Below, piece after piece: positions 47,091-51,264 of a DNA stretch of 64,000 bases (positions are counted from its first letter, which is position 1; the number at the start of each line of letters is the position of its first letter). The notes below the pieces were generated by a model. That model was not told where the DNA came from. It saw only the letters and a program-made list of their open reading frames with translations, and did not search any database. Source of the stretch: Deltaproteobacteria bacterium (GTDB lineage Bacteria > Myxococcota_A > Polyangia > Fen-1088); contig JANRKS010000031.1 in assembly GCA_033763315.1 (NCBI GenBank), forward strand, positions 128,001 to 192,000. The letters run 5' to 3'. The translations under genes and the position numbers were made by a program.

Positions 47091-47855
47091 ATGTCCCTTA
47101 GCCCTATGTCGCTTGATCCCGCCAATTTGCCGCAGCACGTTGCCATCATCATGGACGGCAACGGCCGCTGGGCCCAGTGCCAGGGGTTGCCGCGCGTCGA
47201 AGGGCACCGCCGAGGCGCCAAGTCCGTGCGAACGGTGGTGCGGGCGGCGCGCGAGATTGGGCTTCGTGCACTCACGCTTTACGCCTTCTCCGCCCAGAAC
47301 TGGCGTCGTCCAGGCGAAGAAGTGGCCCTGCTGATGCAGCTGCTGCTTGAGTACGTGCTCGAAGAGCGGGCAGAAATCATGGACAACGGCATACGTCTCA
47401 CAGCGATTGGCCAAGTCGACCGGTTGCCGGGCTTTGTGCGTGAGCCTTTGCAGACCTTGATTGCGGATTCCGCCAGCAACACGGGCATGACTTTATGTTT
47501 GGCGCTCTCTTATGGTGGCCGCGAATCAATCGTCGACGCCGCCCAACGCCTGGCGAAGTCGCTGTCCAGCGGCGAAATCACCGTTGAGAACATCACCGAG
47601 GAGGCTTTCTCCGGCGCTCTGCAAACGGGCCACCTGCCGCAACTTGATCTGTTGATCCGGACGTCAGGCGAGCAGCGGCTGTCGAACTTCATGTTGTGGG
47701 AGGCGTCGTACGCCGAACTGTGCTTCACCGAAACCTTGTGGCCCGAGTTCGGACGCGAGCATCTGTTGGCCTGTTTGGAACAATACGGGCAGCGGGAACG
47801 GCGTTTCGGCCTCACGGGCGACCAACTGCGCCCAGCGATTCGCAGCGTTGGTTAA
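47091..47855 (+). CDS. uppS: Undecaprenyl diphosphate synthase
   Basis: HVAIIMDGNGRWA, YAFSAQNWRRP, YGGR, IRTSGEQRLSNF. Confidence 0.96.
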   Translation: MSLSPMSLDPANLPQHVAIIMDGNGRWAQCQGLPRVEGHRRGAKSVRTVVRAAREIGLRALTLYAFSAQNWRRPGEEVALLMQLLLEYVLEERAEIMDNGIRLTAIGQVDRLPGFVREPLQTLIADSASNTGMTLCLALSYGGRESIVDAAQRLAKSLSSGEITVENITEEAFSGALQTGHLPQLDLLIRTSGEQRLSNFMLWEASYAELCFTETLWPEFGREHLLACLEQYGQRERRFGLTGDQLRPAIRSVG

Positions 47856-47895
47856 GGGCGTGACCGGGCGCCGGCTTTTCGGGTAGAAAGCCCTC

Positions 47896-48726
47896 GTGTT
47901 CGACAAGAATCTTCTGTTGCGGGCGCTTTCGGCGCTGGTCGGTTTGCCTCTCGTGGGCTTGCTGGTGGTTTGGGATCAACGCTGGGGCTTTGCCCTGCTG
48001 ACCTTTGCGATGATGGCGATCGCGCTTTCCGAGTACACGAATATGTCGCCGTTGCGCGGCCGCAGTGGCGCCGAACGAGGCACGCTTGTGGTGGCCGGCG
48101 TCGTGTTAGGACTGGCCATCTACGCCCGTCCCGACTTCGCATTGACGTCCCTTATCGTGGTGGCACTTGCCGTGGGGGCGGCGCAGTTGTTCTTCGCGAC
48201 CGATATGCCCACGGCGGGGGCGCGTTTTGGGGCAACGCTTGCGGGTTTGCTTTATGTGCCGCTGCTGCTCACGGCGCTGCCGCTTTTGCAGCGGGACGCG
48301 ACGCACGGAGAGTCGTGGGTGTTCGTTGCTCTGGGCGTGACATTTAGCTGTGATACGGGTGCTTATTTCGCGGGTCGCGCGTTAGGTAAGCGCAAACTGG
48401 CCCCGGCGATCTCACCGGGTAAGACATGGGCAGGTTTCTGGGGCGGTGTGGCCTCTGCGATGTTGTTCGTATTCATCGCCCGCCAAACCTTTTTCCCAAC
48501 CTTGAGCCTCGTTGATGTGGCCGTGGTGGGGGGCGCCTCAGCGGTCCTCGGCCCAGCCGGCGACCTCGTTGAATCCATGTTGAAGCGTTCGTCTGGCGTG
48601 AAAGACTCGGGCAACGTCATCCCTGGTCACGGCGGGGTTTTAGATCGCGTCGACGCCCTGCTGTTCGTGGGCGGGTTCGTCTACGTTTACGCCGCTCAAC
48701 TCCGAGCGGCGCTTGGTCTTGGTTGA
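47896..48726 (+). CDS. cdsA: Phosphatidate cytidylyltransferase
   Basis: DTGAYFAG, ISPGKTW, GDLVESMLKR, KDSG...PGHGGVLDRVD. Confidence 0.95.
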   Translation: MFDKNLLLRALSALVGLPLVGLLVVWDQRWGFALLTFAMMAIALSEYTNMSPLRGRSGAERGTLVVAGVVLGLAIYARPDFALTSLIVVALAVGAAQLFFATDMPTAGARFGATLAGLLYVPLLLTALPLLQRDATHGESWVFVALGVTFSCDTGAYFAGRALGKRKLAPAISPGKTWAGFWGGVASAMLFVFIARQTFFPTLSLVDVAVVGGASAVLGPAGDLVESMLKRSSGVKDSGNVIPGHGGVLDRVDALLFVGGFVYVYAAQLRAALGLG

Positions 48727-48989
48727 TGAAGCCGCTATGACAAGGGTGTCATAGGACCGCAGGCGGTCCCTCAGATGCCTGCGGGGCCCAAACGACGAAA
48801 CCCCCGCGAGGCGTTTGCCGGCGGGGGCGTTGTCGTAACTAAGTGAAAAAAAGATCTTAAGTCTTTGAGGCCGTCGTTCGATGGGACGTTGGCCCCTCAA
48901 CCGTGGCTTTTGCCCTGTAAGCTACTGAAACCATAAGCAAAGCTGGAATACGGTGGGCCGGAAGCTAAGCAAGAGTAAGAAAGTATTTA

Positions 48990-49308
48990 AGCCAACTAGG
49001 GGTACGGCTGCTGGTCAATCCAGCGGGCCGAAGTATTAGGCCACACCGGTTGTTAAGGCCGGTGTGTGGGAGGAGCGGCTTGTTTGGGGGCCATAATAAT
49101 CCCATCCAAACCACTCCCTTGGCTTTTGCAAGGGTTGTGCCGAAGCGATTCTCCCGTTTACCGCATGGCCAAGTCCTTGGAAATCTGCGCACTTCCATGT
49201 TAGGACGGTGGTCAACACATCCCTACGGACCGCCCAGCGGCCTTTTCACCCTGACTTTGATGTCACACCGCTTTTGCGCAGGTCCCGGCCCTTTTCACGT
49301 GTCAGTGA
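48990..49308 (+). promoter_or_regulatory. Candidate structured 5' leader RNA of the RNase E/G gene
   Basis: At least six stems including a three-way junction, readable directly from the sequence (see findings); no credible ORF; boundaries approximate. Confidence 0.55.
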
Positions 49309-51264
49309 ATGTCGAACAGCGTTTTGGTCGTTAACGCGGACGGCCCCGAAATCCGCGTAGCCCTTATTGAAGATGGTTTGCTTGGCGAATTGTTCGTCGA
49401 GCGCAAACGCGATCGTGGGATCGCGGGAAACATCTATAAAGGGAAGGTTGAGCGGATCCTGCCAGGCATGCAGGCCGCCTTTGTTAACATCGGCTTGGAG
49501 AAGTCGGCTTACCTGCACGTCTCGGACGTGCGCGGCACGCCAGACGATCTGCGCCGCCTGCTTTCCGGGGACAGCGGTCCCCGGGACAGCGCCGAAGCCA
49601 ACGGCGATGACGCGGGCGACGAGCCTAACGAAAAAGGCGGCGGCGATCGTCGCGGTGGCGTGCCGGGCAACGGGCAAGGCCGACGCATCGAAGAGCTGCT
49701 CAAGCCTGGCCAAGAGATCATCGTTCAGGTGACGAAGGAGCCCATCAGCACCAAGGGGGCCCGTGTCACGCGGTACATCTCGCTGCCTGGGCGTCACCTC
49801 GTCTTCATGCCCACTGTCGACCACGTGGGTATCTCGCGCCGGATCAATTCGGATCGAGAACGTCGGCGCCTGCGGCGTTTGGTCAACGAGATGCGTCCGC
49901 AGGGGTCGGGCTTCATCGTGCGCACCGTGGCTTCGGGCGTTGCAGATAAGGATCTGCGCGCCGACATGGCCTTCCTCATCAAGATGTGGAATGAGGTCGT
50001 CAAGAAGACCGAGACCAGCCGTTGCCCGTCATTGATATATAGCGACTTGGATCTGCTGCTGCGCTCGGTGCGTGACTTATTCACGGCTGACGTTGAGAAG
50101 ATGATCATCGACTCCAAGAGCGAGTATGAACGCGTGAAGAAATTCATCGCGGCTTTCATGCCCGACTTCCCTGGGGAGATTGAGTTTTACAACAGCAACG
50201 AGCCCATCTTCGACGGCTTGGGCATCGAGATGGAGATCGACAAGGCGCTTGAGCGCAAGGTCTGGTTGAAATCCGGTGGCTACCTCATCATCGACGAGAT
50301 GGAGGCTTTGACCGCCGTCGACGTCAATACGGGTCGCTTCGTGGGCAAAAAAAGCCTGGAAGATACGATCACGCAAACAAACCTGGAGGCCGCCCGCGAG
50401 GTGGCGGATCAGCTCCGTGTACGTTCCTTGGGCGGCATGATTGTTGTCGATTTTATCGACATGGATCGCGCGTCCAACCGCGAAAAAGTGATGCGGGTGT
50501 TCAACGACGCCCTCAAGCGTGACCGCAACCGCGCGCAAGTCACCCGCATTTCCGAACTTGGTTTGGTGGAGATGTCCCGCAAGCGTACGCGCGAATCCCT
50601 GCTGCACACCCTTACGGAGCAGTGTTTGCACTGCGAAGGCAAAGGCTTCACGCGGTCGCGCCAAACGGTTTCGTTCGAGGTGCTGCGCGAGCTGCGCCGC
50701 CAAGGCAACTTGGTTGATGGGCACACCATCTTGGTGGAAGTGCACCCCGACGTGGCCAAGCAACTGACCACCGTGGATCGCGATTTCCTGGAAGACATCG
50801 AGAAGCGCTTACAAAAGCAGATCTTGGTGAAGACCCGTGGCTCGTTCCACATGGAAGAGTTTGAGATTCGCTCGCCCAAGGACAAGCAGAAGATCGAGCG
50901 CTCTGAGGTCGCTACCAGCTCCGACAAATTGGAAGAGCGTAAACGTCGTCGGTTCCGCCGCGTTCTATCGCCTGATGAGCTTGCAAACCTCGACAACGAC
51001 GAAGGCGTTGTGAATGCCGAATTCATGACGGACGACGCCGACGACGAAGCGAAGCCCTCCTACGATCACGCGGGCCGCGAGGTGCAGCACGAACTCGACG
51101 AGATGGATCTCGCTTACGCCGCGGCTTCGCAAGAGGATGACGAAGCCACAGGTACGTCCGATGAGCCGGGGACGACCACGGATCCTGACGCTGAGCTGCC
51201 ACACGCACACAGCGCCGCCTTGATCTCACAGGTTGATTCCGAAGTCCCCGACACGGATGACTGA
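49309..51264 (+). CDS. rne: Ribonuclease E/G family
   Basis: GNIYKGKV...PGMQAAFV, QVTKEPISTKGAR, DVNTG, TNLEAA, GGMIVVDFIDM, CLHCEG Zn link; Arg-rich patch and acidic tail. Confidence 0.95.
   Translation: MSNSVLVVNADGPEIRVALIEDGLLGELFVERKRDRGIAGNIYKGKVERILPGMQAAFVNIGLEKSAYLHVSDVRGTPDDLRRLLSGDSGPRDSAEANGDDAGDEPNEKGGGDRRGGVPGNGQGRRIEELLKPGQEIIVQVTKEPISTKGARVTRYISLPGRHLVFMPTVDHVGISRRINSDRERRRLRRLVNEMRPQGSGFIVRTVASGVADKDLRADMAFLIKMWNEVVKKTETSRCPSLIYSDLDLLLRSVRDLFTADVEKMIIDSKSEYERVKKFIAAFMPDFPGEIEFYNSNEPIFDGLGIEMEIDKALERKVWLKSGGYLIIDEMEALTAVDVNTGRFVGKKSLEDTITQTNLEAAREVADQLRVRSLGGMIVVDFIDMDRASNREKVMRVFNDALKRDRNRAQVTRISELGLVEMSRKRTRESLLHTLTEQCLHCEGKGFTRSRQTVSFEVLRELRRQGNLVDGHTILVEVHPDVAKQLTTVDRDFLEDIEKRLQKQILVKTRGSFHMEEFEIRSPKDKQKIERSEVATSSDKLEERKRRRFRRVLSPDELANLDNDEGVVNAEFMTDDADDEAKPSYDHAGREVQHELDEMDLAYAAASQEDDEATGTSDEPGTTTDPDAELPHAHSAALISQVDSEVPDTDD

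Follow-up and report, generated by a model that had tools for sequence, protein, structure and literature searches.

Conserved hairpins upstream of an RNase E/G gene in uncultured Polyangia probably belong to a sigma-54-dependent small RNA gene on the opposite strand

The window analysed here, a 64,000-nt stretch of a Deltaproteobacteria bacterium genome (Myxococcota_A, Polyangia, Fen-1088; assembly GCA_033763315.1, contig JANRKS010000031.1, positions 128,001 to 192,000), contains the RNase E/G gene rng, which is separated from the preceding gene, cdsA, by a gap without a credible open reading frame (ORF; Table 1). A sequence-only reading of this gap had recognized a series of hairpins and interpreted them as a long, highly structured leader of the rng mRNA. 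We suggest that these hairpins probably constitute an undescribed small RNA (sRNA) gene, dependent on sigma-54 and encoded on the minus strand, rather than a long rng leader. This proposal is derived from DNA sequence, through the conservation and orientation of its motifs, the covariation of its helices, the polarity of its terminators and the statistics of its folds. The RNA does appear to be undescribed, as that reading had it: an Infernal search of Rfam (cmscan, both strands of 47500-50500, E<=10) returned two matches, both outside the gap and neither from an rne family, leaving the gap without any match, rne5 and rne-II included, and we found no published description of it in the literature.

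The closest rng loci belong to metagenome-assembled genomes of uncultured Myxococcales/Polyangia. The order cdsA, gap, rng is kept in 14 genomes of this family, with gaps of 307-706 nt, and outside the genus DNA similarity is confined to the start of the coding sequence. Despite this limited similarity, an alignment of 28 distinct gaps presents a fixed series of blocks. Running from cdsA to rng, these are the GC hairpin that follows cdsA, A/T-rich DNA in which TAAGC is repeated, and a variable hairpin (P1); then P2, CACACCGG/CCGGTGTG, followed by GGGAGGAG, a variable hairpin (P3) and AGCAA-N5-GTGCC; and lastly TTGAAA-N14-TGnTA, a CCCTGAC..GTCAG palindrome, and a T-run plus CAYAG shortly 5' of the ATG. 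As a family, the predicted RNA is conserved in several genera of uncultured Polyangia.

Table 1. Features of the cdsA-rng region, in window coordinates.
Feature	Position	Strand	Description
cdsA	47896-48726		PF01148; preceded by uppS
cdsA-rng gap	48727-49308		582 nt
Predicted sigma-54-dependent sRNA	48790-49116	minus	5' end placed from the promoter, 3' end from the terminator
GC-rich terminator hairpin	48790-48836, core 48801-48827	minus	Adjoins the cdsA stop; UUUCGUCGUUU follows on the minus strand
P1 hairpin	49005-49030	minus	Sequence variable, position conserved
P2 hairpin	49042-49066	minus	CACACCGG/CCGGTGTG
C/U-rich box	49068-49075	minus	CUCCUCCC on minus, GGGAGGAG on plus; between hairpins
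P3, 5' stem-loop	49071-49118	minus	Contains the GTTTGG/CCAAAC stem
Putative sigma-54 -24/-12 promoter	49128-49141	minus	GGCAC AACCC TTGC, followed by A; -24 GG 49141-49140, -12 GC 49129-49128
Block C, sigma-70-like promoter (tentative)	49177-49206	plus	Extended -10 geometry: TTGGAA 49177-49182, 14 nt, TGT 49198-49200, TAGGAC 49201-49206
Candidate short rng 5' untranslated region (UTR)	49213-49308	plus	About 96 nt; TTTTCAC 49292-49298 belongs to the conserved T-run/CAYAG motif
Block D	49249-49266	unassigned	CCCTGAC..GTCA, an imperfect palindrome; its centre lies some 140 bp upstream of the predicted sigma-54 start
rng	49309-51264		RNase E/G gene; 651 aa; PF10150, E 2.4e-104

The block AGCAA-N5-GTGCC, read on the minus strand as GGCAC-N5-TTGCT, matches the -24/-12 consensus of sigma-54 promoters, TGGCAC-N5-TTGCW, and in the window the GG and GC dinucleotides stand at consensus spacing. 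A scan of both strands over up to 400 nt upstream of rng in 106 distinct loci found GGCA[CT]-N5-TTGC in 52 of them, every time on the minus strand. Agreement with the consensus extends to two positions that the pattern left free, R following GGCAC in 50 of the 52 loci and W following TTGC in all 52. The 54 loci carrying the motif on neither strand include all distant outgroups (Desulfomonilaceae, Acidobacteriota and others), and by our reading of the locus table the motif is present in 44 of the 47 loci with at least 65% N-terminal identity, the three exceptions being a variant with a 6-nt spacer, a locus with masked bases at this point and one other. Eight further, more distant Myxococcota loci also carry it, as do 27 of the 28 sequences of the family set, the last having N6 instead. 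The TTGC lies at -168 relative to rng in most loci, and in the window transcription is predicted to start at about 49116. The genome encodes rpoN (sigma-54; PF04552, E 1e-64) and has 59 matches to PF00158, the sigma-54 activator domain.

At the other end of the hairpin series, next to cdsA, the GC-rich hairpin with its core at 48801-48827 is followed on the minus strand by TTTCGTCGTTT, the arrangement of an intrinsic terminator. Across 51 loci, the 10 nt following this hairpin contain on average 3.78 T on the minus strand versus 1.76 on the plus strand; locus by locus, the minus strand has more in 38, the plus strand has more in 7 and the two are equal in 6. In sister clades the body of the RNA has changed, yet the promoter still lies about as far from rng, and textbook minus-strand terminators follow some 165-200 nt downstream of it. 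We also note that in this genome the terminator (48801-48836) is flanked by ACGAC/GTCGT arms and is nearly symmetric, and it may hence stop both cdsA and the sRNA.

The RNA predicted between these two signals would be about 270-330 nt long in the window, with a 3' end anywhere between about 48850 and about 48790, and about 165-240 nt long in most relatives. Its minus-strand sequence (49118-48786) folds at a z score of -4.15, and none of 100 shuffled sequences is equally stable. In the relatives P3 begins, by inspection, 13-15 nt after TTGC, a position +2 to +5 relative to the predicted start, and AACUCC occurs in its loop in 18 of 50 loci. Next to P3 stands the C/U-rich box CUCCUCCC, found in 39 of 50 loci with a mean unpaired probability of 0.70, against 0.42 for the RNA as a whole. 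A trans-acting base-pairing sRNA is expected to have a conserved single-stranded seed, and we regard the box, which resembles an anti-Shine-Dalgarno sequence, as a candidate for it. The tail of the RNA (48840-48990, minus strand) carries repeated GCUUAR motifs, seen as TAAGC on the plus strand, at least two of them in 20 of 50 loci; in one relative (L006) they can be read at intervals of about 21-24 nt. These repeats may be protein-binding or cleavage sites.

A covariance model (R1) built on the minus strand from nine sequences of one clade matches the window at 48962-49120 on that strand (24.9 bits, E 0.003-0.006). All of its full-length matches are antisense to rng, and under strict filters it finds 39 of 89 family genomes, with one copy in each. 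Among 30 such loci inspected, 29 adjoin rng and the remaining one is cut by a contig end. The resulting alignment has 39 distinct rows; pairing holds in 89.6% of its cells versus 82.0% after shuffling, none of 500 shuffles reaching the observed value (slid controls, 31-47%), and two-sided changes are present in 16 of 25 pairs, including 7 of 9 pairs in P3 and 6 of 7 in P1. A class-wide pattern combining the promoter with the C/U-rich box is present in 29 of 46 family genomes and in none of the controls; outside the family it is found in about 31 of 254 genomes versus about 15 control matches (a count taken from the table), and most of these outside matches resemble promoters preceding ORFs. 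Twelve loci from this pattern were inspected, and rng is adjacent in seven and not adjacent in five. In another family of the same class, two loci (L128 in G171 and L129 in G114) have the sigma-54 motif, then a hairpin of GGGTACGAC..GTTCGTTACCC, then CTCCTCCC; no rng lies within 1.5 kb, and this element may be a related sRNA at a different locus.

Because the helices are strand-symmetric, we counted wobbles to ask which strand carries the RNA. P2, whose stems align without gaps, contains 21 minus-sense G.U pairs versus 1 plus-sense, and 98.8% of its cells pair when read as the minus strand versus 93.0% as the plus strand; the interior pairs of P3 contain 20 minus-sense wobbles versus 3 plus-sense. 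RNAalifold applied to plain MAFFT alignments recovered only 3-4 trivial pairs on either strand, because the variable hairpins were misaligned. We draw the minus-strand call mainly from the promoter and terminator, together with the position of P3 and the wobbles of P2.

The observations of the sequence-only reading on the stems and structure of the gap are in part borne out. Every stem and repeat that it listed can be read at its coordinates: CGGC.GCTGG/CCAGC..GCCG at 49005-49030 and CACACCGG/CCGGTGTG at 49042-49066; the GTTTGG/CCAAAC, GGGAGGA/TTCTCCC, TGGAA/TTCCA and TTCAC/GTGAA stems; AAGTATT at both 48981 and 49031; and CGGCC(C)TTTTCAC at both 49238 and 49286. Reading of the sequence likewise upholds its remark that the start region has no clear Shine-Dalgarno sequence, as none lies 5' of the rng ATG. 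The highly structured plus-strand RNA that it assembled from these stems did not emerge from the folding, in which 48975-49320 gives a z score of -0.84 with 20 of 100 dinucleotide shuffles equally stable, and the opposite strand of the same segment gives -2.99. The helix GGGAGGA/TTCTCCC, with which it closed a three-way junction, has 7 bp here, and over the 44 relatives that carry the box the mean longest run is 4.32 versus 4.13 in shuffled sequences. Its CCCTTG/CAAGGG stem within the junction varies freely in relatives and overlaps the invariant promoter motif, and its argument that G-U pairs favour the plus strand is not upheld by the wobble counts of the family, 21 to 1 in the minus sense in P2.

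Immediately upstream of rng the evidence concerns a promoter of another kind. The region earlier described as a long stem (49166-49214) corresponds to our block C, which has the geometry of an extended -10 promoter facing rng, with a predicted start at about 49213. TTGnnn-N14-TGnTA occurs on the plus strand in 33 of the 52 loci and on the minus strand in none, and its geometry is fixed across deep divergences. We tentatively propose block C as a sigma-70-type promoter for rng; the assignment is tentative because the T at -7 is not conserved. The sigma-54 promoter and block C stand back to back, and the distance from block C to the -24 GG clusters at either 25 or 36 nt, approximately one helical turn apart, which suggests a face-of-helix constraint between DNA-bound complexes. 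The short rng leader that would follow block C is not notably structured (49213-49330, plus strand, z score +0.26; about -1.0 on average for the leader region in 28 relatives), and its sequence differs among clades. The same variability led us to reject a hairpin plus T-run just 5' of the ATG as a conserved attenuator. In the window (49292-49298) and in relatives, a T-run and then CAYAG, 5-20 nt before the rng start, occupy the usual position of a Shine-Dalgarno sequence; CATAGT is similar to a -10 hexamer, so that a second promoter could conceivably give an rng mRNA with almost no leader.

These results bear directly on the interpretation that the sequence-only reading preferred, in which a plus-strand 5' UTR of about 330 nt would sense RNase E/G activity and feed back on rng. 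The rne gene of Escherichia coli is known to be autoregulated through its 5' UTR, and a comparable leader here would fit the strict linkage of the element to rng, the missing Shine-Dalgarno sequence, the conservation and covariation of hairpins that are symmetric between strands, the plus-sense wobbles of P1 in one clade and a raw fold energy that favours the plus strand in 21 of 28 sequences. It is nonetheless unsupported as a long plus-strand leader, since its fold is at the level of chance, relatives do not conserve its junction helix, significant structure is missing from the ~100 nt nearest rng, the G.U asymmetry of P2, the best-aligned helix, favours the minus strand, and the conserved hairpins are bracketed by a sigma-54 promoter and a terminator of the minus strand. 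The sigma-54 motif is moreover invariant and lies mid-element in the opposite orientation, the terminator points the opposite way, and block C, being promoter-like, fixed in geometry and downstream of the hairpins, would exclude 49005-49118 from the rng transcript. Neither rne5 nor rne-II matches, and a scan of 48500-49500 for the sigma-70 consensus found no promoter upstream. We consider such a leader quite unlikely; what stands of the earlier proposal is a conserved, structured element new to Rfam, for which an sRNA was already among the options.

Block D lies within the DNA of the putative rng leader. Its TGAC/GTCA halves are invariant in the 28 family sequences and its centre is variable; in sister clades the 3' half has degraded without compensation. 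Its distance from the predicted sigma-54 start fits the position expected of an activator site, roughly 100-150 bp upstream, and block D is hence a candidate site for an enhancer-binding protein (EBP) or, equally, a candidate element or hairpin of the rng leader. In some genera (L005, L011, L020, L021, L024 and others) an ATG stands directly before block D and opens a short ORF that begins MNPDI(R/C/S/Y)VS and ends just before rng; by our reading of the table, about 14 of the 41 sequences whose block D is exact have this ATG. This ORF is absent from the genus of the window and from the largest clade, and we rejected it as a family-wide coding feature because the variable bases fall at codon positions 1-2.

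In another reading the palindromes of the gap would act only at the DNA level, as protein sites of a complex divergent promoter region, and no stable RNA would be made from them. The sequence conservation of both block D and P2 is in keeping with this, as is the step between the 25- and 36-nt spacings, which suggests helical phasing of bound complexes. However, P1 and P3 keep pairing as their sequences change, with double changes in 13 of 16 pairs, and sequence-specific DNA sites are unlikely there because such changes would not be expected; in addition, a promoter and a terminator bracket the hairpins. A purely DNA-level role is therefore, in our judgement, very improbable.

Several results weigh against the sRNA gene that we propose. 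The groups used for the promoter matrix were chosen by the motif itself, and a minus-strand model served to fit the covariation alignment, so that its figures are somewhat inflated and P1 and P3 lean toward the minus strand. The strict scan with R1 missed the window's own genome, where the match is weak (24.9 bits). The wobbles of P1 are mixed, 18 minus-sense versus 14 plus-sense, with 7 versus 7 at a single pair, and one clade's P1 is clearly plus-leaning. A strand-neutral purine/pyrimidine fold yields 35 minus-sense and 30 plus-sense wobbles, which decides nothing, the mean fold z score over the 28 sequences (-2.16 plus, -2.33 minus) does not pick a strand, and the raw fold energies mentioned above favour the plus strand. 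The proposed -10 of rng lacks the usual T at -7. No gene for an enhancer-binding protein adjoins the locus. The one sequencing run that contains a share of the sequence (0.05, as contigs) is probably DNA, its single 151-nt contig covering 49248-49394, and is uninformative on expression. Finally, an RNA acting solely in trans would leave its strict linkage to rng without explanation.

A further reading is transcription of both strands, with the sigma-54 RNA serving as a cis-antisense regulator of rng and the plus transcript being either a long rng leader or cdsA read-through past a terminator that is weak in the plus sense. Such an arrangement would accommodate the mixed wobbles, with P1 leaning plus and P2 minus, the strict linkage to rng and the strict spacing, most loci having TTGC at -168, and the lack of a plus-strand T-run at the cdsA terminator in most relatives. 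Yet there is no sign of a plus-strand transcript over the hairpins, the rng-facing block C lies downstream of them, and the retention of promoter and position in sister clades with a changed RNA body fits a trans-acting RNA equally well. We deem this arrangement unlikely. A related possibility would join the sigma-54 RNA and rng in a single regulatory module through which an environmental signal sets the level of RNase E/G. An enhancer-binding protein at block D, within the DNA of the rng leader, would switch on the RNA while blocking or modulating rng transcription; in a second version the RNA would serve as antisense to a long rng transcript or to cdsA read-through. Although we rate it as rather unlikely, this module would account for an RNA gene that is present in one copy, lies beside rng in every case and keeps a fixed spacing from it.

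Returning to the sRNA gene that we favour, we posit that the cdsA-rng gap is a divergent control region. The sigma-54 promoter (49141-49128) would require one of the genome's numerous enhancer-binding proteins, bound further upstream, with block D as the candidate site, and transcription would begin near 49116. The RNA would then fold into the P3 stem-loop at its 5' end, the single-stranded CUCCUCCC box, and the P2 and P1 hairpins joined by a linker, to be followed by an A/U-rich tail with GCUUAR motifs, and it would terminate at the GC hairpin and U-run beside the cdsA stop. The C/U-rich box may pair with purine-rich ribosome-binding sites of target mRNAs, presumably without Hfq, for which no gene was found in this genome (the assembly is 90.85% complete). 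A crude test of duplexes between the sRNA and the rng start region, which ignores intramolecular structure, gave a mean z score of +0.34 versus shuffles and thus no signal of pairing. rng itself would be read from the separate sigma-70-like promoter (49177-49206), with a leader of about 96 nt. From the arrangement of these elements we infer that the RNA is produced, where it begins and ends, that it depends on sigma-54 and how it acts.

Small RNA genes controlled in this manner have precedents. The Qrr1-4 RNAs of Vibrio are sigma-54-dependent. Reports on GlmY/GlmZ in enterobacteria (PMC3045617) and on CrcZ/CbrB in Pseudomonas (PMC8871633) likewise concern sRNA genes with a -24/-12 promoter and an enhancer-binding protein. 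The cdsA-rng RNA shares this organization, as far as predicted, but occurs in another taxon and has no sequence or Rfam match to any of them. Its C/U-rich motif, exposed between or in hairpins, is reminiscent of sRNAs of the RsaE/RoxS type, whose C-rich seeds bind Shine-Dalgarno regions; the likeness is one of motif. Like the E. coli rne 5' UTR (rne5) and rne-II, it is conserved, non-coding and placed directly upstream of an RNase E/G gene; it differs from them in that no covariance model matches, the hairpins apparently belong to the opposite strand, and the leader on the strand of rng is short, without significant structure.

The closest analogue is Pxr of Myxococcus xanthus, the only regulatory sRNA that turned up in the myxobacterial literature searched. 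In the sections of the two reports consulted, Pxr is a 108-nt sRNA of three stem-loops with a predicted sigma-54 promoter and an enhancer region (PMC5684412, PMC5568312), located between pxrR/nla19, which encodes an NtrC-like regulator, and a NADH dehydrogenase gene (PMC5568312). Those sections report it only from the Cystobacterineae and state that myxobacteria lack hfq (PMC5684412, PMC5568312). As far as these accounts extend, the two RNAs are alike, the cdsA-rng RNA as a predicted one, in being intergenic sRNAs of myxobacteria with a predicted sigma-54 promoter, several stem-loops and a host without a known Hfq gene, and block D would be the candidate counterpart of the enhancer region. The cdsA-rng RNA would be larger (about 170-330 nt) and belongs to uncultured Polyangia, and its neighbours, cdsA and rng, are not those of Pxr; on the same partial accounts, it is size, neighbours and taxon that set the two apart, rather than a comparison of their sequences.

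The case also carries a caution for interpretations made from sequence alone, namely that where a gap rich in hairpins precedes a gene, the gap can itself be a gene of the opposite strand. A second, unrelated-looking family of sigma-54 sRNAs would point to promoters of this class as a general means of riboregulation in a phylum that lacks Hfq and possesses dozens of enhancer-binding proteins, and the invariable position of the RNA beside the gene for RNase E/G hints that signal-dependent transcription and RNA decay may be connected.

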